A DNA stretch of 64,000 bases, taken from the sequence record AY692264.1; one strand, given 5' to 3'. Below the pieces are notes generated by a model that was not told the origin of the DNA, did not search any database, and saw only the letters and a list, made by a program, of their open reading frames with translations. Source of the stretch: Escherichia phage T5. This document shows, in pieces, positions 33,667 to 54,275 of the stretch; the first letter of the stretch is position 1, and the number at the start of each line of letters is the position of its first letter. The position numbers and the translations under genes were made by a program.

Positions 33667-33846
33667 TTACTCAGCTTTGAGTTGTGATTTCAACCAGTTA
33701 GTAAACCCCAGCTCAGTTACGCAATCTTTATCAATACGTTGCAGGTCTCCTAGAACCGTACTTAGATGCTTAACTGATACAGCGTCACCACTTTTGCGAG
33801 CAGCTTCAATCAACTCTCGCAGTACATAAAGCATATTCATGCCCAT
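33667..33846 (-). CDS. small protein (59 aa)
   Basis: read manually; start overlaps upstream stop (TAATG). Confidence 0.35.
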   Translation of the reverse strand: MGMNMLYVLRELIEAARKSGDAVSVKHLSTVLGDLQRIDKDCVTELGFTNWLKSQLKAE

Positions 33847-34016
33847 TATTTCATCCCCAATGCTTGGTTAAAAGATTGTTCTGTCATAACTGCTGAAACT
33901 TTGGCGAAATCAAACTTTTTAGGGTTCGTAGTGATCTCAGCAACGTTGGAAGTTTTAACAGTTTTCGTAGTACGAATACCGCGAGTGTTAACACCAATGA
34001 CGATCAAGTTTTTCAT
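33846..34016 (-). CDS. small protein (56 aa)
   Basis: read manually; GAGGAAG RBS, downstream of promoter 34048. Confidence 0.35.
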   Translation of the reverse strand: MKNLIVIGVNTRGIRTTKTVKTSNVAEITTNPKKFDFAKVSAVMTEQSFNQALGMK

Positions 34017-34047
34017 ATTTCGCTTCCTCTCATTAATTTATGAAAGT

Positions 34048-34076
34048 ATTATACAGAAGTTTAAGTATTTAAGCAA
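34048..34076 (-). promoter_or_regulatory. T5-type early promoter (TTGCTT-17-TATAAT)
   Basis: ATTATA 34048-34053, AAGCAA 34071-34076. Confidence 0.7.
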
Positions 34077-34084
34077 ATAAATTT

Positions 34085-34552
34085 TTAAGTTTTAGTGACA
34101 GCAGGCTTATAAAATGTATGTCCCTTAATCTTAGTTGTTTTCTTAAACTTCTTTGTCCAGTATGGTTTATCTTTACCACTATGGAAGTATAAAGCTCCAT
34201 GTGTAGGATCTTGTGGTAAATCAACGTAGTATATCACTCTAGCTAAATTCTTGGCGGTTTGCCAAGCCTCATCGGTTTTATCGACTTTTGGTCTCTTAGA
34301 TACCCAAGAGAACTGGTTAGACTGATATACTACTTTACAGTAGGAATCTGGAAATTTGCCGGAGTTTACACGGTTTTTAGTAACCTGTGCAACCGCCATC
34401 ATTCCCTTTATGCCCTCACCACGACTCTCGAAATAGATATTTTTAGCAATGCAATCTATTTCTTTTGCATCGTGCGATGCTTGACTACTAAAGCTGAAGG
34501 TAAGGGCAGCTACTAAAAGCAAAGCTGCCTTCATTCTTTTTACTCCTGCCAA
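34085..34552 (-). CDS. secreted SleB-like cell-wall hydrolase
   Basis: 155 aa; N-terminal signal peptide; NIYFESRGEG ... QVTKNRV ... YQSNQFSW resembles SleB/Hydrolase_2 signature. Confidence 0.55.
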   Translation of the reverse strand: MAGVKRMKAALLLVAALTFSFSSQASHDAKEIDCIAKNIYFESRGEGIKGMMAVAQVTKNRVNSGKFPDSYCKVVYQSNQFSWVSKRPKVDKTDEAWQTAKNLARVIYYVDLPQDPTHGALYFHSGKDKPYWTKKFKKTTKIKGHTFYKPAVTKT

Positions 34553-34857
34553 TCGTATTCAATACGATTGGGGTTTTCTTTGTATCCCAAGTCAAGCAAA
34601 TCATTACGCATAGTTTGCTTAGCTACGGGATTCGAGGTTACTAGTACCACTTTCTTTGGTCTCTGCCCAAATTCTAAAAGTAAACGAAGAATTTGATAAC
34701 CTTCCATACCATCTACAGCCAAATCGTTATCGAAATAAACAAAATGGCCAGTGGTATCAGTTTTATTCAGAAACTCGATAGCGGCTTCTGGGGTTCGAAT
34801 GATAATGTCCATTCCGTGAAGATTACGCACATCATCAATCAAAATATGAAAAGTCAT
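34540..34857 (-). CDS. hypothetical protein (possible receiver-like fold)
   Basis: 105 aa ORF; weak resemblance only. Confidence 0.35.
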   Translation of the reverse strand: MTFHILIDDVRNLHGMDIIIRTPEAAIEFLNKTDTTGHFVYFDNDLAVDGMEGYQILRLLLEFGQRPKKVVLVTSNPVAKQTMRNDLLDLGYKENPNRIEYDWQE

Positions 34858-34887
34858 AATAGCCTCGTTTCATCAATTTAAAAATAT

Positions 34888-34916
34888 ATTATACAGAAAA
34901 CTTAATAAATTAGCAA
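34888..34916 (-). promoter_or_regulatory. T5-type early promoter (TTGCTA-17-TATAAT)
   Basis: ATTATA 34888-34893, TAGCAA 34911-34916. Confidence 0.7.
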
Positions 34917-35299
34917 ATACATTTTTAAATTGTGAAACTAGTAAACCGATAAACAGCCTAGAGGCGCCACAGGCCATATCTTACGAGCCATGTACCTTTG
35001 ATCTAGGGTTTGAATCATCAACGAATACTTTGCATCTTTTAGCTTTAGAAGTTTAGAAGTTTGAGTTCTTTAAACTTTTCAGCTTTCATACTTAAATGTT
35101 GATCTTTGAAGTTGTGTCGGTAATATCAACGACTTTTTGTTTTTACGTGTCAGATTAAATGTCTGATGTAATAAACATAATCTCCAATAGATTATACTTT
35201 ATAGTATGGTCAGCGGTCTTATTTAACCTCGTATTTCAACCGCTGCTGCGAGGTAAGATGCTTGGGCTTTCGTCTACCGATTTACTAGCTTTTAAATTA

Positions 35300-35938
35300 T
35301 TACTCTACTTCAATGAAGGTAGAGGCATTAGACTCGGACAGAACAAAGTCAACATTTGTTGCAAAGTCCTGGTATTCCTCGTCATGCTGTTTAATCAGCT
35401 TCTCCAGTCCCAGCGGATCAATCAAGAATGGAGTATTCTTGAGTTCCAACAGGTTGAGCTGCATTTTAACTTCATCTTCGGAAGTTTTCTTATCGCGGGT
35501 AGCCATGCTATCCTGCAAACGCTCATATTTAGCATCAAACTGTGCTTTCTGCGTATTAAACTTAACCGTAGCGGCATGGAACTGCTTACGCATATTAGCC
35601 AGCAACTGAGCTTTAAGCTCCATAGAACGCTTAGCTTCAATTGCTTCTGCAACAGTCATTTTACGAGAACCGATCTCAACGATCGTTTCTGCGTTGCTCT
35701 TAATCAGAGCAGCTTTGATACGATCACGCTGGGACATCATATCCAGCAGAGACTGGAAATCAGTCTTAATACGAGTAGACAGGGCATCTACTTCGATTGC
35801 GGCGCCAACTACAACCTGGTTTTTATCCTTACCTTCACCAACAGCGATCAGAAGCTGTTGTTCAGTAGCTTTACGGATTTTAGCTTCCAGAGATTTGATG
35901 GTTGCCAGAGCACGAGTTTTAGAAATACGAGTGGTCAT
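35300..35938 (-). CDS. coiled-coil protein
   Basis: 212 aa; chosen over antisense plus-strand ORFs on operon direction and residue composition. Confidence 0.5.
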   Translation of the reverse strand: MTTRISKTRALATIKSLEAKIRKATEQQLLIAVGEGKDKNQVVVGAAIEVDALSTRIKTDFQSLLDMMSQRDRIKAALIKSNAETIVEIGSRKMTVAEAIEAKRSMELKAQLLANMRKQFHAATVKFNTQKAQFDAKYERLQDSMATRDKKTSEDEVKMQLNLLELKNTPFLIDPLGLEKLIKQHDEEYQDFATNVDFVLSESNASTFIEVE

Positions 35939-35990
35939 TGTTTCTTCCTTATATGAAGTTTAAGATTTGAATTTGTTTAAAGTTGGTCTA

Positions 35991-36173
35991 TTACAGACCA
36001 ATTGCCAGTAGGGTACGCAGAACAGTATCTTTACTGTTATCAATTTTAGGATTAGCACGATTTAGCAGATCAAAGATTTTCTGGACACCTGATTGACGTT
36101 CAGCCATACGACGGATACCCAGATTACGAGTAGCTTTCTTACCATTTTTACGAACATTTTTAGATACTGGCAT
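35991..36173 (-). CDS. small basic protein
   Basis: 60 aa, Lys/Arg-rich; downstream of promoter 36214. Confidence 0.4.
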   Translation of the reverse strand: MPVSKNVRKNGKKATRNLGIRRMAERQSGVQKIFDLLNRANPKIDNSKDTVLRTLLAIGL

Positions 36174-36213
36174 ATTTGTTTTCCTTTTGTTGTTTTCTCA
36201 AATTTATGAATAT

Positions 36214-36242
36214 ATTATACAGAATTTTGAAGCTGGAAGCAA
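36214..36242 (-). promoter_or_regulatory. T5-type early promoter (TTGCTT-17-TATAAT)
   Basis: ATTATA 36214-36219, AAGCAA 36237-36242. Confidence 0.7.
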
Positions 36243-36243
36243 A

Positions 36244-36945
36244 TCAAATTTTGATTTTTTCGACCATAGCTGCAACACAATAGCTCTCAACTAAGGCATC
36301 GAATGCTGGGTCATGTTTAACTGGGTAGATTCCATAACGAATGGTGTCCATCTTCTCCATCTTAGCTTTTGCCCAGCTAATCCCCTCTGCTTCTAGGTCT
36401 TTGTAGCTATAACCAGCCTGCATCCAGAGATTGCGGAGAGATCGAACATTGCCCAAGTTCCAGAATTTCCACGGAACTATTTCTTCATTGGTTCCAGCAT
36501 GAAACGTATTTGCAGAATAGATAGTCATATCAAATTCTGGGCCGTTGCCATAATACAAAGCATTCTCACCTAGAGCCAACTCCATAATATTTTGGGCCAT
36601 AGAGTAAGCAGCATAGTTAGAGCCGAGTTTATTAGTACAACGATGTTTACCATTTTGGAATGCAATCAGCTTTGGATTACGATCGTTCATAGCTTCCATA
36701 ATATGGAGAGCTGATGGACTATTTTTAGCTTGATCCATCCAGAATGCTAGAGTAGATGCCGTAACTTTAGCTCCAGAATTAAGCTGATCTTGTACATCCA
36801 AAGTAACAAACACTAGATCGGGGTCTTTATCAATTCCATGCATAGCCACAAAAGCGAAAGAAGGCATTGCGATATGAGTAGTACCGCAATCTCCTGGAGT
36901 TCCTAGAGATTCAATATCTAGCATACCAAATGGTTTTACTTTCAT
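36244..36945 (-). CDS. hypothetical protein, possible DEDD-type exonuclease
   Basis: 233 aa; N-terminal FGMLDIESLG resembles exonuclease motif I; weak. Confidence 0.35.
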   Translation of the reverse strand: MKVKPFGMLDIESLGTPGDCGTTHIAMPSFAFVAMHGIDKDPDLVFVTLDVQDQLNSGAKVTASTLAFWMDQAKNSPSALHIMEAMNDRNPKLIAFQNGKHRCTNKLGSNYAAYSMAQNIMELALGENALYYGNGPEFDMTIYSANTFHAGTNEEIVPWKFWNLGNVRSLRNLWMQAGYSYKDLEAEGISWAKAKMEKMDTIRYGIYPVKHDPAFDALVESYCVAAMVEKIKI

Positions 36946-36973
36946 AACTTATCTTTTATTGCGTAGAAAACTA

Positions 36974-37210
36974 TTAAAGAGCTGTCTCTTTAATAGACTC
37001 CCACTTCTTGAGGTCTTTAGAACCAGGAAGCATATCCTCACTGACATCCCAGTTCTCTTCCATAGAGAAGTCAGGCCATTCATTCCAGCTACCTTCCAGC
37101 TCTTCATAACAGGTATTCATTACCTCATGACTAGAAAGTCGTGTATAATCTCTAGCGGATTTATGGGTGCTAGCACGGTTAAAATCATTCTTTGCTACAA
37201 AATTACGCAT
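36974..37210 (-). CDS. hypothetical acidic protein
   Basis: 78 aa ORF. Confidence 0.4.
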   Translation of the reverse strand: MRNFVAKNDFNRASTHKSARDYTRLSSHEVMNTCYEELEGSWNEWPDFSMEENWDVSEDMLPGSKDLKKWESIKETAL

Positions 37211-37252
37211 AGTTTCTCCAAAATATGAGGGGCTTTCGCCCCTATTTATCTA

Positions 37253-37768
37253 TTACTTCGCTTTACGCTTGCGAGCTGGTTTAGCAGATTTACGAGCAGA
37301 ATCGCCCGTGAATTTAATCCCTACACCGTAGCACAGAGCACGAACGTTATCTTTGCTATACTCTACACCGAAGATATTTGGCTTAACAGAACCAAACTGT
37401 CCACGAGCATCACGCAGTACATCTGCCGTTGGTTTACGCTTCTGGTTAACTGCTTTCTCATAATCTTTCATGGCCATGCCATTACGAGAGAACAATTCAG
37501 CTCCAGCATTGAAACTCAGTGTTACTGGAACAGATTTGTGACCATAACCCTGTACATAGGTCACAAGGCGGGCTACAGAACGAGTAGCATTCTTAGCCTT
37601 CGGCTTTTGACGAATCGGAGCCGGACGATTCAGTGCCTGTGCAGCTTGAGCATCAGTAGGATGCTTGCGCAGGTGGCGTTCCAGACGAGCTTTGCGGTTA
37701 GCCTCAGTCTGCGGGAAAGTTTTAACTGTAGTAGCTGCTTGAGTTTTTGCGTTTTTCTGCTTAGCCAT
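37253..37768 (-). CDS. basic, probably nucleic-acid-binding protein
   Basis: 171 aa, strongly Lys/Arg-rich at both termini. Confidence 0.5.
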   Translation of the reverse strand: MAKQKNAKTQAATTVKTFPQTEANRKARLERHLRKHPTDAQAAQALNRPAPIRQKPKAKNATRSVARLVTYVQGYGHKSVPVTLSFNAGAELFSRNGMAMKDYEKAVNQKRKPTADVLRDARGQFGSVKPNIFGVEYSKDNVRALCYGVGIKFTGDSARKSAKPARKRKAK

Positions 37769-37806
37769 TATTTGTTTTCCTTTTTGTTTATCAATTTATG
37801 AAGTAT

Positions 37807-37835
37807 ATTATACGAGAATTTGAAGCGTTTAGCAA
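37807..37835 (-). promoter_or_regulatory. T5-type early promoter (TTGCTA-17-TATAAT)
   Basis: ATTATA 37807-37812, TAGCAA 37830-37835. Confidence 0.7.
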
Positions 37836-37851
37836 ATGAATTTTTTAAAAA

Positions 37852-38130
37852 TTATCTGCCGACCATCTTAGCTTGTTCTTCATCAGAAACGTATTGATAT
37901 GCACCCTTGTTATACGCCGGAGCAGTGCACATCTTCTTACGCTCAATTTCTTCTTGAGCTTTACGTTCACGTTCTGCCAATTCCTCATCCAGATAAACTA
38001 AACGTTGTTCTGGAGGAGGTGGAAGACGTGTTTCTGGCTCACCAATATTAGCCTTTCTTATTTGACGAGGTGATTGTGCACGTTTTCTCAACGGTTTAAA
38101 TCCTAATGAATTTGAGTTATAAATTCGCAT
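37852..38130 (-). CDS. hypothetical protein
   Basis: 92 aa ORF. Confidence 0.4.
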   Translation of the reverse strand: MRIYNSNSLGFKPLRKRAQSPRQIRKANIGEPETRLPPPPEQRLVYLDEELAERERKAQEEIERKKMCTAPAYNKGAYQYVSDEEQAKMVGR

Positions 38131-38157
38131 AAAGCCCTCCTCACTTTCAATACGAAT

Positions 38158-38186
38158 ATTATACTAAATTAGAGGGCTTTAAGCAA
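38158..38186 (-). promoter_or_regulatory. T5-type early promoter (TTGCTT-17-TATAAT)
   Basis: ATTATA 38158-38163, AAGCAA 38181-38186. Confidence 0.7.
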
Positions 38187-38206
38187 GAAGATTTTTAATT
38201 TATTTA

Positions 38207-38695
38207 TCACATCTCGGCCATTTCAGCTTCAGTAATAACTGTGTTACACAATGCATCTACAGCTTCATTACCACTAATACCAGAATGTCCTTTAACCTTA
38301 ATAAAGGTAGGATTAGTATTGTGGAAGTTAATGTATTGCTGGGTTAATTTAAATGCTTCTTGCCAAAGTTCTAGATTAAGAGGAACTTCACCATCTGCTT
38401 TCTTCCAGCCTTTCCTTTGCCAAGAGAACATCCAGCTTTCCATACCATTTTTGCAATAAGCAGAATCAGTATAGATAACAATTGGTCTATTATCTTTTTT
38501 AACTGACCAACGTAGAGCTTCTACAATAGCTGTGAGTTCCATCTCATTATTTGTAGTTTTAGGACTATAACCAGATTTAGAGCCTAAACGATCGTCGTTA
38601 TCATCATAGACAATAAAACCCCAAGCACCCGGGCCAGGGTTGGACTTACAAGCGCCATCTGTATAAACATGGAAAACTGACATTATTTGCTCCAA
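38207..38695 (-). CDS. rnh: ribonuclease H
   Basis: 162 aa; RNase H1 signature (YTDGAC ... ELTAIVEAL ... YTDSAY ... GHSGISGNEAVDAL). Confidence 0.85.
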   Translation of the reverse strand: MEQIMSVFHVYTDGACKSNPGPGAWGFIVYDDNDDRLGSKSGYSPKTTNNEMELTAIVEALRWSVKKDNRPIVIYTDSAYCKNGMESWMFSWQRKGWKKADGEVPLNLELWQEAFKLTQQYINFHNTNPTFIKVKGHSGISGNEAVDALCNTVITEAEMAEM

Positions 38696-38744
38696 TTAAT
38701 AGTTACCCAATAGCCTTCACGCTAATTATGATCAAGTAAAATAT

Positions 38745-38774
38745 ATTATATTTGAAATTATACCTAATAAGCAA
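38745..38774 (-). promoter_or_regulatory. T5-type early promoter (TTGCTT-18-TATAAT)
   Basis: ATTATA 38745-38750, AAGCAA 38769-38774; GCCC-loop-GGGC hairpin at 38791-38810 between thyA stop and promoter. Confidence 0.6.
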
Positions 38775-38816
38775 GTACAATTTCAAATATAATAGCCCCC
38801 GAAAGGGCTATTTGAG

Positions 38817-39656
38817 TTAAGAAGACATCTTAGCTTTAAGAGCTGGGTGAGGATCGTACCCCTCTAAATGGAATGACCAAGCTGCCGTATTATTTTCTAG
38901 TAAGTCGTAAAGATCTACAAATTCTGGCATTACTAGAGTCGGTAGAGGGCGTGGCTTGCGTTTTACCTGTTCTTCTACCTGTTCCATGTGGTCATTATAG
39001 ATATGAGTATCACCGCCACTAAAGATAAGATAACGAGGTTTTAATCCTGTCAGTTTTGCTAATATATGCGTTAGCAAAGCATAGCTAGCAATATTGAAAG
39101 GTAAACCGAGGAAACAATCCACAGAGCGTTGTGTCCATTTAAGATCTAGGTATCCATCGTTACTTACATAGCACTGGAAGCCGTAGTGGCAAGGGGGTAA
39201 TGCCATTTTATCAAGTTCAGCTACGTTCCATGCAGAAACTAGATGTCTGCGGCCATGAGGATTATTCTTGAGTCCTTCAATAAGTTCTAGAATCTGATCT
39301 CGCCCACCAAAGTTACGCCACTGTTTACCATATACTGGTCCTAGATTACCCTTATCATACCCCATACTTATAGCTTGGTCTTCATAATTTGGAGTCCAGA
39401 TGGTCCACTGTCCTTCGTCACGACCAAATGTGAATACACGTAGATCATGAAGATTTGTGGAACCAGACAAGAACCATAAAAGTTCTCCTACTACTGATTT
39501 CCAGGCTAGGCGTTTAGTAGTTACAGCCGGGAACCCTTCACGTAGGTCAAACTTAGCATAGGAATCAAAAATTGAAACTGTGCCCGTTCCTGTACGGTCA
39601 TTACGGGGTTCACCTAGTAAAATTACATCTGTCAAAATTTTTAAGTATTGTTGCAT
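38817..39656 (-). CDS. thyA: thymidylate synthase
   Basis: 279 aa; conserved ThyA blocks including PPCH active-site region. Confidence 0.9.
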   Translation of the reverse strand: MQQYLKILTDVILLGEPRNDRTGTGTVSIFDSYAKFDLREGFPAVTTKRLAWKSVVGELLWFLSGSTNLHDLRVFTFGRDEGQWTIWTPNYEDQAISMGYDKGNLGPVYGKQWRNFGGRDQILELIEGLKNNPHGRRHLVSAWNVAELDKMALPPCHYGFQCYVSNDGYLDLKWTQRSVDCFLGLPFNIASYALLTHILAKLTGLKPRYLIFSGGDTHIYNDHMEQVEEQVKRKPRPLPTLVMPEFVDLYDLLENNTAAWSFHLEGYDPHPALKAKMSS

Positions 39657-40189
39657 TAATAAGTAACCAATTCCTGTACAAATCGCAGGCTGTTATCACT
39701 GTTTGCGCCAACTGCATAGACTAATCGAGTGGATTCATAGTTATAATCCAGTATCATACTATCTAGGTGTGTATCTGCTTCTAGTTTCTGCTCGCTAAAG
39801 ATTGTAGATACAAAAGCACTTTCAATATGCCCATGTTGGTACATTTCTAGAAGAAGATTAGCTCCACCTAGAACTACTGTTTGCTGATCTTTTAGAAAAG
39901 TAGGTAATGTATCACCTATCATTGATATGGGAGTGTAAATATCGTGTGTAATATCATCTGGCAGTGGACGATCAGCACGAATAAATAGGTCAGAAGCCCC
40001 AATCATACGTTCCCTAACGGCATATGGAAGAGCTAAATAAGTACCTGCCCCAATAATAATATTATCAGGATTTAGTACATCTAATTGTGAATAAAAAGCA
40101 TCTAGTTCTTCTTTAAAAGAACCCCAGGGAAGCTTACCTCGGAGGCCGAACTCCCCATTCGGCCCAACTGCATACATTGCTGTAATCAT
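39656..40189 (-). CDS. frd: dihydrofolate reductase
   Basis: 177 aa; N-terminal MI-A-AV-G...LPW motif; follows thyA as in T5. Confidence 0.65.
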   Translation of the reverse strand: MITAMYAVGPNGEFGLRGKLPWGSFKEELDAFYSQLDVLNPDNIIIGAGTYLALPYAVRERMIGASDLFIRADRPLPDDITHDIYTPISMIGDTLPTFLKDQQTVVLGGANLLLEMYQHGHIESAFVSTIFSEQKLEADTHLDSMILDYNYESTRLVYAVGANSDNSLRFVQELVTY

Positions 40190-41331
40190 AGGAAATCTCC
40201 AAATTCATTGCCCAGATCTTTCAGAGTATCAGTAGAGGTCTCAGTTACCTGACCTACACGGTAGGCTGCACCAATCTGGATTTCTTGTGGAGCAGGCTGT
40301 AGAGAAGTAGTATCCAACCAGTTCATGATCCACGGAATAGGGTTTTTAGTGATTACTGGTAAGTGACTAGGCCATTCTACACCAATGTGCATAAATGCAT
40401 TACGCCCCACAAAGTACAAGTATTCTTCTAGAAGTTCTGCATTCAAACCAATCAGACTACGACCTTTGAAGATGAAATGACCCCATTCAATTTCAGTTTT
40501 CAGAGTTTTCAGGAGCTGTGCTGGTGCTTTAGCCACTGCTTCGTCTACCAGATCTTTGTCAAACTGCTGGAACATAATCTGGATGATTGCTTTAGACATC
40601 TGGGTGTGCAGAGCCTCATCTTTAGCAATTAATTGCAGATTTTTAGCAATACCTTGCAGAATATCGTTCTCTGCTAGAGCAAAAGTACATGCAAAGGATG
40701 CGTAGAACTGCATTGCTTCCAGACCGTAGATTGCAAAATAAGCGTCTAATAACTTAGCCTGAGTTTCACGTTTAACTTCAGGGAACTCAGTTTCTGGATA
40801 TGTATTGTCACCACGATGATCACGTACTGCGATGAAATACTGACCTAATTGGTACAGTTCATCGAACAGTTCAACAGAATCTGCGATACGTGCAAATGCT
40901 TCTTGGTTTTTAGTTACAGAATCAATAAATTCTGCTGGATCAGTCAGCACATTACGAATAATATTACTATAAGCACGACTATGCAGGTCTTCAAAATAGC
41001 TCCACTGCTTGAGCATACCTTCCAATTCTGGACGGCTTACAAGCGGCATAATAGCTGCTTCAGGCGCGCGACTAATGAAAGAATCTGTTTGAGTCTGCCA
41101 TGCTAAGTTCAGGAGTGTGATTTCCTGGATTTCACGTGGGAGATTGGGCCATTGTTTCTTATCTGCTTCCAGACTGATTTCAGTTTCAGTCCAAAATTGA
41201 GAGCGAGCTAATAACGCCAGCCTTTCTAGCTCTGGATGGGCTACTCGTACATAATCTGCAATACCAAGAGAATCACCGAGAAATAGATCTTTATTGGTAT
41301 GATCCCAGTTTAAGTTAAGTAAAGTTGTCAT
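40186..41331 (-). CDS. nrdB: ribonucleotide reductase small subunit
   Basis: 381 aa, ferritin-like RNR R2 profile, adjacent to nrdA. Confidence 0.8.
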   Translation of the reverse strand: MTTLLNLNWDHTNKDLFLGDSLGIADYVRVAHPELERLALLARSQFWTETEISLEADKKQWPNLPREIQEITLLNLAWQTQTDSFISRAPEAAIMPLVSRPELEGMLKQWSYFEDLHSRAYSNIIRNVLTDPAEFIDSVTKNQEAFARIADSVELFDELYQLGQYFIAVRDHRGDNTYPETEFPEVKRETQAKLLDAYFAIYGLEAMQFYASFACTFALAENDILQGIAKNLQLIAKDEALHTQMSKAIIQIMFQQFDKDLVDEAVAKAPAQLLKTLKTEIEWGHFIFKGRSLIGLNAELLEEYLYFVGRNAFMHIGVEWPSHLPVITKNPIPWIMNWLDTTSLQPAPQEIQIGAAYRVGQVTETSTDTLKDLGNEFGDFL

Positions 41332-41855
41332 TAGTTCTCCTGTTTATCTGTGTTTCTAAGTAGTGTTGGGTCTTTGGTTATAGAGAGAATTAAAGAATCT
41401 CGATACTCTATCGCCTCTTCTAGAGTTGGGAGAGTTTTCACATATTCTTTTCCGTTAATGGATTTTCTAACTTGAAATCCAGACCCTTTCTTCCGAATAT
41501 TCTTAGTACCCAATATATTGTTTTTACTGGTTTTTCTATTTTGACTATTTAACTGCCAGTCCGCTTCTCTTAGATTAGTCCACTTATAGTTTAGTGAATC
41601 TCCATCTATATGGTCAACCATAACTTTAGGTAAGTTTCCTGTCATGTACAGGAAAGCAATATTTTGTGCGGGATACTTCTTACCCTTGATTTGTATTACT
41701 AAGTCTTTTCGGTTAGGATCTACTGAGTGGGGTTTTAAACAGCCAGCAGGTAGTCCTCTTACTTTATTGTGTACTTCCTGGTTATTTAACCAAGTAAATG
41801 TTCCTTCATCTGGATTATACTCCAGAATCCTTTTTAATTCATCTTGTGTTATCAA
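41331..41855 (-). CDS. HNH homing endonuclease inserted between nrdA and nrdB
   Basis: 174 aa; paralog of 25638-26150 and 61574-62107 (shared MITQE(E/D)LKR N-terminus). Confidence 0.7.
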   Translation of the reverse strand: MITQDELKRILEYNPDEGTFTWLNNQEVHNKVRGLPAGCLKPHSVDPNRKDLVIQIKGKKYPAQNIAFLYMTGNLPKVMVDHIDGDSLNYKWTNLREADWQLNSQNRKTSKNNILGTKNIRKKGSGFQVRKSINGKEYVKTLPTLEEAIEYRDSLILSITKDPTLLRNTDKQEN

Positions 41856-41957
41856 AACTAATCTCCTTAACTAATGGAGATATTATAGCAAATCAGGTAG
41901 CGATTAGCAAGTAAAATTTCAAAGAAAAAGGAGACCCGAAGATCTCCTTGTTTTTTA

Positions 41958-45754: not shown

Positions 45755-47629
45755 ATGAATCGCAATGATGAACTAAAATACAAGGAAATGCAGTCCTTGA
45801 TTAGAAACTGCAAAGAAATTATTGAGGGTTCTGCTGATGAAGAGCTTCTCTTTAATAATGCGAATAAACCCTCTGAGCGTTTCCCTACACAAAGGGATAT
45901 GCTTGCAGGGGAATTGAGTAAATATCTGATTCTAGAAGAAATGCCAGTTCAGATTCGAAATGCTCATATGATTGGAGATATTCATTTCCATGATGCTGAC
46001 TACGCTGCATTAGGCATGACTAACTGTTGCCTAGTAGCTCTAGAAGATATGTTGAAAAATGGTATGAAAGTTGGTAATGCTGAAATTAGTACACCAAATT
46101 CTATTACTACTGCGGCGGCTATTACAGCTCAAATTATCACACAGGTTAGCTCCCATCAGTATGGTGGTACTTCTGTAGACCGATTAGATGAAGTATTGGC
46201 CCCTTATGTTCGTAAGTCTTATGATAAGAATCATGCGTTTGCAAAACGTTGGACTAAGGATGAAGCCAAAGCATCAGTAATGGCTACGGAGATGACTGAA
46301 AAAGAAGTCTATGATGCTTGTCAGGGTCTAGAGTATGAGATCAATACGATGTTCAACTCTAATGGTCAGAGTCCATTTATTACTTTTGGTTTTGGTCTAG
46401 GAACTTCTTGGGAAGCACGTCTAATACAGAAAGCAATACTGAAAGTACGTATGGATGGCTTAGGCATCAATAAACGTACAGCTATCTTTCCGAAACTGGT
46501 GTTTGTTCTGCGTGATGGCGTAAATATGAAGCCTGGAGATGTTAATTATGACATCAAGAAGTTAGCTATGAAATGTACTGCTGAACGTATGTATCCAGAC
46601 TATATCAGCTATGATAAGGTTGTGGAAGTTACTGGTGACTATAAAGTTTCTATGGGCTGCCGTTCATTCTTAGCTGCTACAGAAGATGGTGAAACTGCCG
46701 GTCGTAATAACTTGGGTGTTGTTTCTGTAAACTTGCCTAGAATTGCTATCGAAGCTGAAGGGAATATTGATCTATTCTTTGATTTGCTTGAGCTACGTGT
46801 GGATACAGCGTTAAAAGCATTGGAGTGGAGAGTTGATCGCTTAAAATACATTCAAGCTAAAGCCGCACCCATCCTCTATATGTCAGGGGCCTTTGGATTA
46901 CGCTTAGGGCCTGATGAATATGTATTCGATCATTTCTATAACCGTGCTTCTGTATCTCTGGGGTATATTGGTTGCCATGAAATGCTACAGTTCATGTTTG
47001 GCAAAGATGTAGATACAATGTCTGAGACCTGCATCAAGTTTGTTCAGCGTGTATTGCAGTACATGCGGGATAGGGTCGATCAGAAGAAGGAAGAGACTAA
47101 GTTAGGTTATAGCCTGTATGCTACACCATCAGAGTCCCTATGTGATCGCTTCTGTCGTCTAGACCGTGAATATTTTCCGGAGCATGAAGATATTCTGTCC
47201 AAAGGATACTACACTAACTCTCACCACCTTGATGTGGAACGTAAAGTTGCTCCTAACGTGAAATTTGATTACGAATCTAACTTTACTCCGATTGCTTCTG
47301 GTGGGTGTATCTCTTATGTAGAACTACCAGATATGAAACGATTCCCAGATGCACTGGAATGGGTTATTAATTATGCTGCTAGTAAGGTTCATTACTTCGG
47401 TATTAATACTCCAGTGGATTCCTGTGGTAAATGTGGATTCTTAGGTGAAACAGTAGCATCCGAAGATGGATTTAAGTGCCCTATCTGTGGTAATCATGAC
47501 CCTGAAACTCTTGAAGTAACTCGTCGAGTTTGTGGGTATCTTGGAAATCCAGGTGCTCGTCCGTTTAACCCAGGAAAACAACATGAGGTTATGGGCAGGG
47601 TGAAACATCAGGATATTCGAGCTAAATAA
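45755..47629 (+). CDS. nrdD: anaerobic ribonucleoside-triphosphate reductase (class III)
   Basis: 624 aa; C-terminal glycyl-radical motif RVCGYLG and Cys-rich zinc site. Confidence 0.9.
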   Translation: MNRNDELKYKEMQSLIRNCKEIIEGSADEELLFNNANKPSERFPTQRDMLAGELSKYLILEEMPVQIRNAHMIGDIHFHDADYAALGMTNCCLVALEDMLKNGMKVGNAEISTPNSITTAAAITAQIITQVSSHQYGGTSVDRLDEVLAPYVRKSYDKNHAFAKRWTKDEAKASVMATEMTEKEVYDACQGLEYEINTMFNSNGQSPFITFGFGLGTSWEARLIQKAILKVRMDGLGINKRTAIFPKLVFVLRDGVNMKPGDVNYDIKKLAMKCTAERMYPDYISYDKVVEVTGDYKVSMGCRSFLAATEDGETAGRNNLGVVSVNLPRIAIEAEGNIDLFFDLLELRVDTALKALEWRVDRLKYIQAKAAPILYMSGAFGLRLGPDEYVFDHFYNRASVSLGYIGCHEMLQFMFGKDVDTMSETCIKFVQRVLQYMRDRVDQKKEETKLGYSLYATPSESLCDRFCRLDREYFPEHEDILSKGYYTNSHHLDVERKVAPNVKFDYESNFTPIASGGCISYVELPDMKRFPDALEWVINYAASKVHYFGINTPVDSCGKCGFLGETVASEDGFKCPICGNHDPETLEVTRRVCGYLGNPGARPFNPGKQHEVMGRVKHQDIRAK

Positions 47630-50040: not shown

Positions 50041-50469
50041 ATGTTTAATAATGTATTCTCTAAAGAAGCTAATCCAATATTGGTTAATTTTTGGCGTACT
50101 CTTCCAGCCAACCTGTACAATGAGGCTATTAATGCTCTAAAAATATGGTGTGAGAATAATGAAATCTCCTTTGCTTTTAAAGGCGAGATTGAAGAAGCTC
50201 CCTGTATTGGTTTAATTGTGCAGGTAGAGGATGGTCTTGAAGAGATTGTCGGCTGGAAAGAGTTAGATGAAATGGGCTTGGTTTTTGCATTAAACTATAA
50301 GCTGTTTATGCCTAATAAACACCGTATTGTTGTTAACTATAAAACCAGTGAATCTCCTGGCTTTCAAGTTAATGAACATTACGGTTGGTCTTACTCACCG
50401 GAAGAAGTAAATGATGGTATCCAAAAACTTCGTCGTTTTGGTTATCAAATTCCGGGTTTAACTGCCTAA
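50041..50469 (+). CDS. hypothetical protein, tandem paralog A
   Basis: 142 aa; shares PCIG ... MGL(V/I)(F/V)ALN(Y/F)(K/S)LF ... PGL with next ORF. Confidence 0.45.
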   Translation: MFNNVFSKEANPILVNFWRTLPANLYNEAINALKIWCENNEISFAFKGEIEEAPCIGLIVQVEDGLEEIVGWKELDEMGLVFALNYKLFMPNKHRIVVNYKTSESPGFQVNEHYGWSYSPEEVNDGIQKLRRFGYQIPGLTA

Positions 50470-50478
50470 GGAGGCACA

Positions 50479-50871
50479 ATGGAACAAATATATTGGCGTC
50501 AGATTGATCCTAGTTTGGTGAAGTGTGCAGAGAAGCTGCTACAACGTTGGTTGGGGGTAAGACAAGCCTCCTTCACTTTTCCGGAGCAGCAAATAGACGA
50601 TCCCTGTATTGGTGTTTTCCTATCAGGCTACGCTGGGGAATGGGAATTGGATTGGAATGAATTGTCTGCTATGGGTTTAATTGTTGCACTAAATTTCTCT
50701 TTGTTCCATCCACGTGGTTTGGCTATATGTCGTGTGCCTGATGATGGTTGTTCGCCCCATCTTTTACGGGTGGAAGATGATATTTGGGAGTACACTCCAG
50801 ATACTCTCAAAGAAGCTAAAGAACAGTTAAACCGTGTTGGGATCTATGTTCCAGGCCTGAATGATGAATGA
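50479..50871 (+). CDS. hypothetical protein, tandem paralog B
   Basis: 130 aa. Confidence 0.45.
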   Translation: MEQIYWRQIDPSLVKCAEKLLQRWLGVRQASFTFPEQQIDDPCIGVFLSGYAGEWELDWNELSAMGLIVALNFSLFHPRGLAICRVPDDGCSPHLLRVEDDIWEYTPDTLKEAKEQLNRVGIYVPGLNDE

Positions 50872-50895
50872 TTTTTATTAGCTGAACTCTGATTA

Positions 50896-50922
50896 CCGAG
50901 TCATTTTGGCTCGGTTTTCTCT
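50896..50922 (+). terminator. rho-independent terminator
   Basis: CCGAG-loop-CTCGG hairpin followed by TTTTCT. Confidence 0.55.
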
Positions 50923-50962
50923 GTACTCAAAGACACTGATAGCACCATCCGGAAAATTTTAC

Positions 50963-50991
50963 TTGCAGGATGCCCAAAATCTTGATATAAT
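50963..50991 (+). promoter_or_regulatory. sigma70 promoter (TTGCAG-17-TATAAT)
   Basis: TTGCAG 50963-50968, TATAAT 50986-50991; about 500 bp without ORF follows. Confidence 0.65.
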
Positions 50992-51488
50992 ATTTATATT
51001 GAATTGAGAGACATTAGTAAAAATTGATTTTGCTAATTTTTCTTGTTTACAATCCGCGATACGGAACAGTTAGGCTGCCCCATTAAGGGTTGTTTTAACT
51101 GTTACTAGTGTTTATATTGCATTAGTTAATATTCAATTAAGTGATCTGTGTACCCTGAATTCGGAAAGGTAAATCCAAACCGTGCATATTTAGCTCGTTA
51201 TATAGGCAGAGTTTTATATGGGGGTGCGAACGAAAAGAGCAGCGAATGGCGGCACGTACAGTAGTCACCTACCAATAGGATAGTGAGGACAAATAGAATC
51301 GGCTTAGCGGCCAATGACCTAGGTTCTATTCTGTATATGAGCGAAGAGAGCACAGCACTGAGATATGATAACTTATTCATATTGTTTGATGATAATTGAT
51401 GTTTACGTAAATAGTAGTAATAGTTGTTCTATTCTTTCTGAATAGTCCTAAAGAAAAGATTTCGATTAACCAACACAGGAGTATTGTT
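50992..51488 (+). other. ORF-free segment of about 500 bp (candidate replication origin or ncRNA)
   Basis: promoter-proximal, no ORF of 60 aa or more; inverted repeat AACAGTTA...TAACTGTT; immediately upstream of helicase-like gene. Confidence 0.3.
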
Positions 51489-54275
51489 GTGTTTTCTATC
51501 CTCCAAGGTCACGCCGGATTTTCTCGTGATTTAGCAACAGGTATTTGGCGAGAAATCAAAGCGGAAGATTATACCTTTGCCAAGCGATTCTCGAAAGAGC
51601 ATCCAGAAGGTAAACCAGCTTCTATGCCCTTCAAATTTGATGTAATAGAAGAGCACGACCCACAAAGCCTTGCCGAAATGTTACCCCTCATGAGACGTTT
51701 AACGTCTGACCCTCATATCGTTGCGGTGCGAGGTCGATGTCTCGCACCTAAAAATAATGTGCGACGTAAGAAAGGTAACTTTAATGTATCTAATCCTAGT
51801 AATATTATTGCTATGGACGTGGATGGTATCCTAGATACCGGTGGGTATGACAAATTTAATCTTGTTGGTATGGCCCGCCACATTATTAAGATGTTGAATA
51901 GTATTAGTGAGGATATGTTTCCTCTTGATGCAGGGTTTATTGCTCATGCATCGTCTTCGGCTGGGCTAAAACCAGGTATCCGAATGCACTTAATGCTAGA
52001 ATCTAACGTCAAGGTAACTCAGGGTCAGCTAAAGTTCTTATTTACATCTATCAACGATAGTAGTAAGCAAAAATTTGGTTTTGATATTGCCGACCTAGCT
52101 TATTATTCATCTGTCCAGCTCCACTATTTTGCCGACCCCTTATTTAGCGATGGTATTGTTGATCCGTTTAAAGCGGAGAGTAAGCCACGTCTGGTGTATG
52201 TTAAAGGTTCGAAAGTAAATTTGCCCAATAATCTGGTTGACTATGAAACAACTAGAGGGGAGTTTAAGGAAGGGTTTTATTCTTTACTTGATCAAATTAA
52301 AGGCAAAAAGATTGCTTCTGATAAAGTAGAAGAAACCATCAGCGAGTTAGAAGAGGCTGATGATGGAGTGTATTTGCGTATTATCCCCAAACTATACCAT
52401 AGAGCATTAGAGGATGGTGTTGATTTTGCATGGCTAGAACGTGAGATTAAACCAGCTTTATCTGAATATATTGCAACTAAAGATAACAGTCGTAATATTC
52501 AAGATTACTTTAATAACGGTCGTAAGCAGGCTCTCAAAGCGTTTGTTAATAATTCTAAACGTGAGATTCCATTAAATCTGAAAGGTGTTCCACTTAAGAA
52601 ATTAGAAGTGGATTCTCCACCAGAAGTTCCATACCTGAAGATTAACATTGTGCCCCCAAAAGGCCATATAACATTTGTTAAGGCAAGTCTTGGTACTGGT
52701 AAAACTACGGCAGTAACTAAATGGCTGGACGCAGGTGTTCTTCCAGGCAACTTTTTAGCAGTTACAAATACTAGAGCACTGGTATCTTCAAATGCCAAGA
52801 AATTTAGTGCAGGACAATACGATAAGTCTGTAGATATGCTCAACTTTAAACGTGGAGCTATCGATCGTATGTCCACAACTATTCACTCTTTGCATAAGTT
52901 CAAAAGTTTTATTGGGCAAATAGACACCATTTTTATTGATGAATGTGACGCTGTAATGAATGACCTATTATTCGCCCCTGTTGTTAAACAACGTCGCGAG
53001 TGTATTCAAGTTCTACGTGACATCCTTATGACAGCTAAGACTGTAATCTTATCCGATGGTGATATTAGTGCTGAGACGATTGAAGCATATGGTTCTCTAA
53101 TTGATTTTGATAAACCAGTAGCATTTTATAATCATCACCGTAAAATGCTGTCAAAAGCACACGCTTATGAGTTTCCTGATGAATCCAGTATTTGGGTTGC
53201 ACTTCAGACTTCTCTAGAGATGGGTGAGAAATCTATTCTAGTATCTGATTGTGGCCCGGATGAGCTGAATGAGAAGGGTATGGCACTGCGTCGTAATACG
53301 GGTGCGTTAGTTAAGGAAATCCATTCAAACTCCACCTCAGATGTGGATATTCGACGTATTCTGGATTATACAACTAATGAGCTAATTGATCAACAAATTG
53401 ATTGCTTATTATGTAGTCCATCCGTAACGAGTGGCGTTGACTTTAACTATTTCGATAATGTGTTTGTTATTACTAGAACCAGTAATCAAGCGCCAAACAT
53501 GCGTTTCCAAGCAATCAGGCGCGACCGTGGTGCCCAGAACATCTATTATTTTATTGATAAATCTACGAGTGGATTCTCTGCAGGTTCTGAGCAATATAAT
53601 ATTGATGAAGGTTGGCTGGAGTTAGCACAGCAATTATACGCACGTCGTAGAGAGCTGGAATCTAGAAACTATACTAGTACCTTACGTTATTATTTGCTTG
53701 ATCAGGGTGCAACTATTGATATTTTCAGCGAAAGCTGGGGAACTATTGAAGGTGCTGGTAAAGAATATACAGAAGAGCGAATCAAAGCTATTCTGCATTC
53801 AACTCCAGATTATTGTGCCCCACGTCATGCAGATGCATATGAAGCTAAACTACTTCTTGTTCGCTATTATCATCTTGAGTCTATTAAAGATGTAACAGTT
53901 GAGCATGTCGAACAATATATCAAAGATAAACCGAATGATCGAGCTGCATTCTTCCATAAGATGCACGAGATGTTCTGGGAAGATATTAAGAAGTGTTCAA
54001 ATGTGACCATTAAACCATTCATAGAGGCTCTGAAAGGTAAGAAGAAAGACTTCTTCCTTAAAACAGGTCAGAGTGCCAACCCAAAATATGCTAGAATGTA
54101 TCTTGGTATGATGGGTATTGGTAAGGATATGAACACTGAAAATATTGTAGACTGGTACAGAACCTATTGTAAAATCGAGTGTATGCCAATTCCTTTCAAA
54201 TTCATGACAGAGGAAGAGAGGGCTATGGCAGAAGAAGTAATGTCCGAACTTGGAGCAACTAATGAAGATGCATAA
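51489..54275 (+). CDS. large Walker A/B NTPase, probable SF2 helicase or origin-binding protein
   Basis: 928 aa; GTG start with AGGAG RBS; Walker A SLGTGKTTAV and Walker B IFIDECD. Confidence 0.6.
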   Translation: MFSILQGHAGFSRDLATGIWREIKAEDYTFAKRFSKEHPEGKPASMPFKFDVIEEHDPQSLAEMLPLMRRLTSDPHIVAVRGRCLAPKNNVRRKKGNFNVSNPSNIIAMDVDGILDTGGYDKFNLVGMARHIIKMLNSISEDMFPLDAGFIAHASSSAGLKPGIRMHLMLESNVKVTQGQLKFLFTSINDSSKQKFGFDIADLAYYSSVQLHYFADPLFSDGIVDPFKAESKPRLVYVKGSKVNLPNNLVDYETTRGEFKEGFYSLLDQIKGKKIASDKVEETISELEEADDGVYLRIIPKLYHRALEDGVDFAWLEREIKPALSEYIATKDNSRNIQDYFNNGRKQALKAFVNNSKREIPLNLKGVPLKKLEVDSPPEVPYLKINIVPPKGHITFVKASLGTGKTTAVTKWLDAGVLPGNFLAVTNTRALVSSNAKKFSAGQYDKSVDMLNFKRGAIDRMSTTIHSLHKFKSFIGQIDTIFIDECDAVMNDLLFAPVVKQRRECIQVLRDILMTAKTVILSDGDISAETIEAYGSLIDFDKPVAFYNHHRKMLSKAHAYEFPDESSIWVALQTSLEMGEKSILVSDCGPDELNEKGMALRRNTGALVKEIHSNSTSDVDIRRILDYTTNELIDQQIDCLLCSPSVTSGVDFNYFDNVFVITRTSNQAPNMRFQAIRRDRGAQNIYYFIDKSTSGFSAGSEQYNIDEGWLELAQQLYARRRELESRNYTSTLRYYLLDQGATIDIFSESWGTIEGAGKEYTEERIKAILHSTPDYCAPRHADAYEAKLLLVRYYHLESIKDVTVEHVEQYIKDKPNDRAAFFHKMHEMFWEDIKKCSNVTIKPFIEALKGKKKDFFLKTGQSANPKYARMYLGMMGIGKDMNTENIVDWYRTYCKIECMPIPFKFMTEEERAMAEEVMSELGATNEDA

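Follow-up and report, generated by a model that had tools for sequence, protein, structure and literature searches.

A conserved structured element in the putative 5' leader of the UL9-like helicase gene T5.108 of bacteriophage T5

In phage T4, the origin transcript of ori(uvsY) is also an mRNA. In lactococcal phages of the c2 type, the replication origin occurs as three types (i.e. c2, bIL67 and 923) with >90% identity within types, none between types and no recombinants (PMC7150918); chimeras were reported to be non-functional, and both the sequence or structure of the PE1-T transcript and its length were reported to be important (PMC7150918). A catalogue of >10,000 phage structured RNAs holds motifs of up to 151 nt. 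Leader RNAs of gene 32 have also been discussed (PMC10690425). In Escherichia phage T5, a classical model phage, no origin has ever been defined at the level of sequence, and what its UL9-like helicase does has yet to be settled (PMC3632103). The biochemistry of this enzyme, the D2 helicase, was described by Wong et al., and a role in replication initiation was proposed (PMC3632103). The non-coding segment directly upstream of the UL9-like helicase gene of T5, T5.108, was analysed here in a stretch of 64,000 nt of T5 DNA (record AY692264.1; the window). All coordinates are those of the window; for the leader region, the position in the T5 record AY543070 is the window position + 8056. The segment very probably contains a conserved structured element of the + strand, with a fold that compensatory substitutions have preserved in several genera of enterobacterial T5-like phages. 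Our favoured, though tentative, reading is that it is the template of a conserved, structured and cis-acting 5' leader RNA of ~490 nt in the T5.108 mRNA.

Folding and coding potential of the gap upstream of T5.108

The non-coding gap spans 617 bp (50872-51488), from the stop codon of T5.107, which ends at 50871 in the AY543070 annotation, to the GTG of T5.108 at 51489. This sequence is 100% identical to AY543070 58928-59544, and matches to it were found in 523 phage records. In the T5 annotation, no other gap in this part of the genome is as long without a coding sequence (CDS) or RNA feature, the injection-stop region aside, which agrees with an earlier description of the locus from its letters alone (the sequence-only reading) as an unusually long untranslated stretch. 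That reading was likewise correct in stating that the stretch has no open reading frame (ORF) over 60 amino acids (aa) and ends at the GTG start of a 928-aa NTPase: the longest ORF has exactly 60 aa and lies on the - strand (51198-51380).

Conservation of structure was examined by comparative folding. A single MAFFT alignment of all sequence types misaligned the helices and yielded almost no consensus structure; two alignable groups were therefore folded separately and then joined by covariance models. Alignment A2 comprised the alternative type together with Klebsiella, Pectobacterium and My1 sequences, and alignment A3 comprised the T5 type and phiR2-01. RNAalifold produced the same architecture from both of these separately aligned groups. 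Controls were generated by sliding the 3' partners and by 500 shuffles. In A2, 90.7% of cells were paired as compared to 38-50% with slid partners, and 41 of 78 pairs exhibited changes on both sides as compared to 9-15. For A3, the corresponding values were 96.3% versus 32-49% of cells and 26 of 131 versus 1-6 pairs. None of the 500 shuffles reached the observed values for either alignment. Among 21 distinct sequences aligned to the model, a fit that itself favours the pairing figures, 91.1% of cells were paired (35-47% when slid) and 32 of 36 pairs covaried. Minimum-free-energy (MFE) folds of single sequences exhibited the rod-closed topology described below in most of seven representatives. 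A structured leader or non-coding RNA (ncRNA) had been among the proposals of the sequence-only reading, with covariance and secondary-structure analysis across T5-like phages as the suggested check; this analysis, in which the + strand folded better and compensatory changes were found across genera, strongly supports that proposal.

The strand of the fold was assessed from energies and wobble pairs. The T5 leader had an MFE of -128.2 kcal/mol (z -2.6) on the + strand versus -95.1 kcal/mol (z -1.3) on the - strand, and the consensus fold had an energy of -105.6 kcal/mol in T5 versus -49.0 kcal/mol when mirrored on the - strand. G-U pairs make up 18 of the 130 consensus pairs in T5; the loss of these pairs and the poorer score on the mirrored - strand indicate that the folded strand is the +, the sense strand of the promoter. 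The folded species is either the RNA or a displaced + DNA strand, which have the same sequence and both fit the data.

Known RNA families were sought with cmscan and permissive filters against Rfam 15, whose families include ROOL, GOLLD, RNase P, 6S, group I and II introns, riboswitches and tmRNA. No match was obtained in 50872-51488 at E<=10, or in the homologous gaps of eight relatives at E<=1. ARAGORN detected no tRNA or tmRNA in the gap, and no similarity was found between the leader and the T5 stable RNA RNAX. A structured RNA was not annotated at this place in any record inspected, and the literature searched on the T5 origin, T5 ncRNAs and T5-like intergenic regions yielded no description of the element. 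A fragment of the leader RNA could be listed in the bulk catalogue of phage motifs. Within the structured leaders and large phage RNAs, the putative leader RNA would be a new family, unusual in its size and in its allele-like types.

It is barely credible that the gap consists of unannotated small protein genes or of a spacer with chance folds. Short "hypothetical proteins" of 38-42 aa are annotated in at least eight of the 90 records listed (e.g. MT233524, L002:1511-2028), and T5 has the 60-aa ORF on the - strand; against this, no ORF is common to the sequence types, among which strand, frame and length vary, and close relatives (e.g. L013) have only a truncated form of the 60-aa ORF. As no ORF is conserved, the annotated short proteins in the leader are probably spurious, and the gap ORFs are without Pfam matches. 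Substitutions in the helices are compensatory and not codon-like, and the leader is better conserved than the flanking genes. A conserved small ORF or a complete lack of conservation, which the sequence-only reading had named as arguments against a functional element, was not encountered.

Promoter and RNA architecture

The promoter that the sequence-only reading had described as TTGCAG-17-TATAAT at 50963-50991 was recovered from the sequence, by alignment and in the annotation. It consists of TTGCAG (50963-50968), a 17-nt spacer and TATAAT (50986-50991); the TG of an extended -10 occupies 50983-50984, and an A/T tract lies upstream. A generic sigma-70 scan did not list this site because TTGCAG fits TTGACA at only three of six positions. 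Its 75-nt promoter window can be aligned column for column with the T5 early promoters P-N25, P-N26 and P-K28a/b, with which it has the A/T tract, the TTGC.. -35, TATAAT and a downstream ..TTGAGAGA in common. After TTGAGAGA, these named promoters have GGAG and an ORF, whereas the leader promoter is followed by no ribosome-binding site. An unnamed promoter is annotated at AY543070 58999-59073. The promoter is kept in Klebsiella and Pectobacterium phages, and among relatives it lies at about -525 from the gene start. By homology with P-N25, transcription is predicted to start at A 50998. The early promoter, with its +1 near this position, would drive a + strand leader that is continuous with T5.108; a terminator scan predicted no terminator between the promoter and this gene, and a promoter scan found no - strand promoter within the element. 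The terminator of the preceding operon isolates the transcription unit that follows. Coordinates of these features and of the helices of the leader are collected in Table 1.

Table 1. Features of the T5.108 leader region (window coordinates; helix names as used in the text)
Feature	Position	Strand	Details	Basis
Intrinsic terminator of upstream operon T5.100-T5.107	50895-50915	+	9-bp stem then T run	Terminator scan; annotated in AY543070
T5 early-type sigma-70 promoter	50950-50998	+		Sequence, alignment with named promoters, annotation
Hairpin A	51006-51044	+	Predicted 5' end of transcript; base GAGAGA paired with UUUUCUU	MFE folds
Hairpin H1	51049-51093	+	Near-invariant apex ACGGAACAGUUAGGCUGCCCC at 51061-51081	RNAalifold
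Core domain	51096-51426	+	331 nt, closed by long-range rod of ~45 bp	RNAalifold, two groups
H2 (rod)	51096-51115 with 51407-51426	+		RNAalifold
H3 (rod)	51119-51136 with 51386-51402	+		RNAalifold
H4 (rod)	51140-51151 with 51350-51359	+		RNAalifold
Arm H5-H8	51152-51225	+	Inner junction	Compensatory changes in H5 and H8; equivalent arm in other group
Arm H10-H13	51256-51336	+		Covariation; covariance model matches
Side hairpin H14	51362-51383	+	3' side of rod	Covarying stem
Hairpin H15	51429-51445	+	CUAUUC/GAAUAG, directly 3' of core	RNAalifold
Shine-Dalgarno and start codon of T5.108	51477-51491	+	AGGAG 51477-51481; GTG 51489	Sequence
T5.108	51489-54275	+	928-aa UL9-like SF2 helicase ("D2 helicase")	Pfam, PDB, PHROG

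The predicted transcript begins with two adjacent hairpins. MFE folding placed hairpin A in T5, in the alternative type and in Klebsiella, Pectobacterium and My1 sequences, its stem differing in sequence in each. The T5 and alternative types have the same H1 sequence (100% identity), and that of the Pectobacterium and Klebsiella phages is nearly identical, one inner pair changing from G-C to A-U in the Klebsiella type; the H1 motif occurs once in the window. These hairpins could be taken for a processive antitermination RNA of the HK022 put kind, with hairpin A and H1 binding RNA polymerase and causing read-through of terminators in the replication operon. Their location right after +1, their 100% conservation between core types and the standing of H1 as the part of the leader most conserved in sequence would suit such a role, which is nevertheless highly unlikely: the 331-nt core would be left unexplained, some relatives have a replaced or extended hairpin A, Rfam showed no similarity to put or EAR RNAs, and the resemblance to put RNA is one of position only.

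Compensatory variation extends through the core and the hairpin that follows it. Helix H4 occurs as CUGUGU/GCACAG, CUGCGU/GCGCAG or CCAUAU/GUAUGG. The inner junction carries H9 in addition to the arms H5-H8 and H10-H13. H12 is strongly covarying, with up to five pair types per position, and its stems are AAUAGAAU/GUUCUAUU in T5, AUCAGAAU/GUUCUGAU in L013, GAUUGAGG/CCUCAAUU in phiR2-01 and GCAAAUC/GAUUUGU in the alternative type. At the tip of the H10-H13 arm is an invariant hairpin, GGCU-UAGC-GGCC (51301-51312), which occurs once in the window and was found in the same place in 31 loci. Most types have ..GUUGCCA.. in the loop of H14, where the T5 type has UAACUUAU, and most have an GAGAAGUG junction. 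The stem of H15 is CUUUCC/GGAAAG in Pectobacterium and CUAUC/GAUAG in Klebsiella phages; it is without a U tract, and no terminator was predicted there. Beyond H15, an A-rich linker leads to AGGAG and the GTG. Two A/T-rich parts of the leader, 50992-51050 (80% A/T) and 51360-51476 (74%), both belong to covarying helices.

Inverted repeats had been pointed out in the sequence-only reading. Both arms exist, AACAGTTA at 51067-51074 and TAACTGTT at 51097-51104, and they do not form a conserved pairing. The second arm is instead the 5' strand of H2, which covaries with 51415-51426: the two strands read TAACTATT and AATAGTT in other phages of the T5 type and TAACTGTT and AACAGTT in the alternative type, and the covarying pair is A-U in the T5-type relatives, G-C in the alternative type and G-U in T5. 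A hairpin of AACAGTTA with TAACTGTT was discarded in favour of H2, as the substitutions keep H2 and break the hairpin, and C 51069, the partner in that hairpin, never varies. Two further candidates were also set aside. A pseudoknot of the H1 loop GAACAG with sequence 3' of the rod is feasible in the T5 and Klebsiella types and impossible in Pectobacterium, and the direct repeat GTTCTATTCT (51323 and 51426), considered as a possible switch, is not kept in the alternative type.

The closed 331-nt multi-helix domain, with its ~45-bp rod and invariant loops, has the anatomy of large stand-alone RNAs. The core might be cut out of the transcript (e.g. by RNase III in the rod), just as rRNAs are released from precursors by cutting, and act in trans as a scaffold, decoy or catalyst in host takeover or anti-defence. 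T5 is already annotated with several stable RNAs, including the 719-nt RNAX, and the allele-like diversification of the core could reflect an arms race. We consider a processed trans-acting ncRNA improbable, as the element has no terminator of its own, its position is strictly tied to the start of T5.108 in every genome, no second copy or relative was found in another context, and similarity to RNAX or to any Rfam family was not detected.

The T5 record lists eight "stable RNAs with unknown functions" (i.e. RNAI, RNAIII, RNAIV, RNA1, RNA2, RNA2H, RNA3 and RNAX), and the tRNA region with stable RNAs lies at about 30.3-33.1 kb of the window on the - strand. RNAX is a promoter-driven RNA of 719 nt on the - strand (L293:848-1566, i.e. 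AY543070 40848-41566). The window represents the left 64 kb of a T5 variant from which ~8.2 kb of the reference is missing: the deletion junction lies at 33674-33683, T5 positions 33681-41878 are absent, and several tRNA genes and RNAX are gone. RNAX is therefore dispensable. In addition, ~140 nt within nrdD (46933-47075) could not be aligned to AY543070.

Sequence types and distribution of the element

Conservation was assessed in 31 T5-like genomes from IMG/VR, in which the gap measures ~600-620 nt, is longer where insertions occur and has a fixed gene start. The gap is 598-600 nt long in Klebsiella Sugarland-type phages and Pectobacterium DU_PP_V, in which the upstream gene is only 36-49% identical, 590 nt in Pectobacterium My1, 712 nt in Yersinia phiR2-01 and 711 nt in Providencia PSTCR5. 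In every type but one, 170-188 nt separate the invariant loop from the start codon.

Sequence variation in the core falls into discrete types, which have the same fold and a few invariant loops. Between T5 and the alternative type, identity is 40-63% over 51089-51388, as against 100% in the 100 nt before the divergent block and 84-100% in the upstream genes; the left edge of this block coincides with the base of helix H2. Downstream, the 5' half of T5.108 is 62-97% identical per 100-nt window (mostly 76-87%) and the 3' half 89-99%. No breakpoints were observed inside the core in the 31 genomes. The type of the core goes together with the N-terminal half of T5.108, which is the more divergent one, but not with the upstream gene. 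In the comparison of T5 with the L013 group, the leader is 87-99% identical versus 61-86% for the upstream genes, indicating that this non-coding DNA is under selection and is exchanged as a module. Insertions are confined to two places, the DNA before the promoter and the interval from hairpin A to H1; none falls in the core.

In some relatives, an ORF for a 168-aa HNH homing-endonuclease-like protein is located between the T5.107 homologue and the leader promoter (L012:1961-2467, L020:1959-2465, L029:1838-2344 and L031:1961-2467), with the promoter-to-gene unit intact. phiR2-01 has an extra segment of ~105 nt between hairpin A and H1 (L037:1956-2060) with a hairpin of its own, AUUUACGG...CCGUAAAU; this variable peripheral element of the leader is also present upstream of the H1 homologue in L018, L024 and L030. 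T5.107 (50479-50871) and T5.106 (50041-50469) are paralogues with two DUF7415 repeats each, and a homologue also precedes the leader in Klebsiella and Pectobacterium phages.

The breadth of the family was explored with two covariance models: R1, which covers the H10-H14 sub-domain and was built from the second group only, and R2, the rebuilt model. R1 matched on the + strand and in the expected place in phiR2-01 (52 bits), in a new metagenomic type, L285 (63 bits), in the T5 type (17-19 bits, E about 0.003-0.008) and in Providencia PSTCR5 (17 bits); nothing else in the 64-kb window scored at E<1. R2 gave 59 bits on T5, its sole significant match in 64 kb of T5. Motif scans of IMG/VR returned mostly chance matches; among the matches of the first scan, R1 confirmed known T5-like loci only, and the metagenome scan added one type, L285. 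Many contigs of IMG/VR sample 3300045988 (L081, L084, L087, L090, L092, L097, L100, L111 and others) match AGAAGTG-N62-CTTAGCGG with an identical span of 77 nt and are without a match to the leader model; this is another conserved sequence, of an unrelated phage group.

Upstream of the T5.108 homologue, T5-like phages of Vibrio carry 0.7 to >1 kb of non-coding DNA (e.g. JSF12, L039:1-1041; IW18, L038:1706-2416). In the IW18 group, the group inspected for a promoter, the 0.7-kb leaders follow a TTGACA-17-TATAAA promoter. The JSF12 stretch has 50% G+C versus 42% in the gene, and the Vibrio stretches have blocks in common (e.g. GUGACUAACC). Neither R1 nor R2 matched these stretches, even with filters off, and in an alignment of the Vibrio leaders alone the covariation term was positive (i.e. 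unfavourable). The Vibrio stretches may be a separate or a very divergent large RNA.

Discrete types of this kind also raise the possibility of a transcription-activated origin, as the sequence-only reading had likewise proposed, at which the folded untranslated transcript would prime or open the DNA, as an R-loop or a processed primer, and T5.108 would be loaded. Such an origin would work like those of c2 PE1-T, ColE1 RNA II or T4 ori(uvsY), and what folds there could be the RNA or else the + strand of DNA that it displaces. We regard an origin as the main and a serious rival to a cis-acting leader, though on the whole as rather unlikely. The element heads the replication module and directly precedes T5.108, the only origin-binding-protein homologue of T5, and a strong early promoter without a ribosome-binding site behind it would serve such a function. 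The location at 48.7% of the length of AY543070 would also fit: in 1976, Bourguignon et al. reportedly used electron microscopy to place the first origin of T5 close to mid-genome. Core types with 40-63% identity amid near-identical flanks, without internal breakpoints in 31 genomes, form the same pattern as reported for c2-type origins (PMC7150918), and the Vibrio relatives keep a long non-coding stretch here, the promoter being seen in their 0.7-kb leaders only. Against an origin, the gap contains two-copy repeats only, without iterons or any repeat family of three or more copies, and 50872-51520 is without a DnaA box. The cumulative GC-skew minimum lies not at 51 kb but ~5.5 kb to the left of the element, at 45-46 kb of the window, where divergent promoters mark a switch in gene orientation; since GC skew follows gene orientation, this is weak evidence and uninformative on the origin. 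No antisense promoter comparable to that of ColE1 RNA I was found, and the long-range helices and conserved loops exceed the needs of R-loop origins of the T4 or T7 type. A more specific proposal, that the RNA or displaced strand is an origin specificity element recognised by the N-terminal half of T5.108, is doubtful.

T5.108, the leader and known systems

T5.108 is annotated in AY543070 as a "putative replication origin binding protein" with a GTG start, and the position of this start is the same in all homologues. Residues 389-533 match Pfam Herpes_ori_bp, and the protein also matches solved herpesvirus origin-binding proteins in the PDB and PHROG 3712. With its Walker A motif at residue 402, T5.108 is, as judged by the position of this motif, the bipolar D2 helicase of Wong et al. 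(PMC3632103). In the N-terminal 380 residues, D110, D112, H167 and D202 are invariant across genera, and IIAMDVDG occupies residues 106-113 (51804-51827). This pattern recalls the DxD and H motifs of archaeo-eukaryotic primases. Within the leader, GTGCGAACG at 51224-51232 is the complement of the core of box I of the herpes simplex virus (HSV) UL9 site (CGTTCGCAC). It occurs in the T5 type, phiR2-01 keeps TGCGAACG only, and it is missing from the other types, for which reason the resemblance is probably a coincidence.

The element has the marks of a leader: it lies on the sense strand between promoter and start codon, has no terminator of its own and exhibits compensatory structure. An early promoter, the absence of a predicted terminator before T5.108, conservation of the fold, constant spacing to the start codon and insertions that spare the core together point to a cis-linked structured leader. 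Such a leader would act in cis and as RNA, serving as a platform for control of the output of T5.108, and its structure may shield a long untranslated RNA from Rho and RNases. The H1 apex ACGGAACAGUUAGGCUGCCCC, the UUAGCG loop and, in most types, the GAGAAGUG junction could present type-specific or invariant sites to a phage replication protein. The binder would most plausibly be T5.108 itself, with feedback on translation or stability. The ~45-bp rod is a plausible RNase III site, and cleavage there could free the core as a stable RNA.

Several observations weigh against a cis-acting leader. No conserved helix that sequesters the Shine-Dalgarno sequence or the start codon and no conserved attenuator were found; the initiation region was predicted to be partly paired in nine of nine representatives, with partners that differ by type. 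The lack of a conserved expression platform in these folds makes the regulatory model weaker. Known phage translational operators are far smaller than this domain, and the discrete, non-recombining types would fit an origin at least as well. The transcript across the leader is deduced from the promoter sequence and its annotation, and physical linkage alone can explain the co-segregation of the core with the N-terminal half of T5.108.

Whatever its function, the element offers a concrete, mutable way into the start or tuning of replication in T5-like phages. Discoveries of large structured RNAs are rare, and such RNAs have often proved to be ribozymes or ribonucleoprotein scaffolds. The natural types, with their common fold, constitute a ready-made swap test of specificity against the cognate helicase. 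If the element did confer origin specificity, initiation would depend on a large structured RNA together with a cognate initiator, a combination that to our knowledge has not been described for any phage or for any herpesvirus-type origin-binding protein.

The leader resembles ROOL, GOLLD, OLE and raiA, as well as T5 RNAX and RNAI, in its size class, in its many covarying helices and in the frequent association of such RNAs with phages. It differs in that it has no match in Rfam, no similarity to RNAX and no terminator of its own and is fixed before one gene. With T4 ori(uvsY) and ori(34) and with the gene 32 and gene 43 operators, it has in common a promoter-proximal RNA of a replication gene with a second job; the T4 elements, however, are short (i.e. 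an unwinding element of ~50 bp, a pseudoknot or a hairpin), in contrast to a 331-nt multi-helix domain with long-range helices. RNA II of ColE1 is likewise a promoter-driven untranslated RNA of ~500 nt, in which the fold is kept and the sequence is split into specificity groups. ColE1 depends on RNA I, an antisense RNA, and on cleavage by RNase H at a defined origin, whereas for the T5 leader no antisense promoter and no Rfam match were found, and its RNA would continue into an ORF. The PE1-T region of lactococcal phage c2 (Ceduovirus) is also driven by an early promoter without a ribosome-binding site behind it and is untranslated over several hundred nt, and the c2 origin consists, like the T5 core, of discrete types that are highly conserved within a type, unalignable between types and without recombinants (PMC7150918). 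The c2 origin differs in lying between divergent early and late blocks, in being bounded by a second promoter and in replicating plasmids without phage proteins. In T5, which has no sequence relationship to c2 here, the transcript would enter an initiator-type gene, and one fold with invariant loops is kept across the types.

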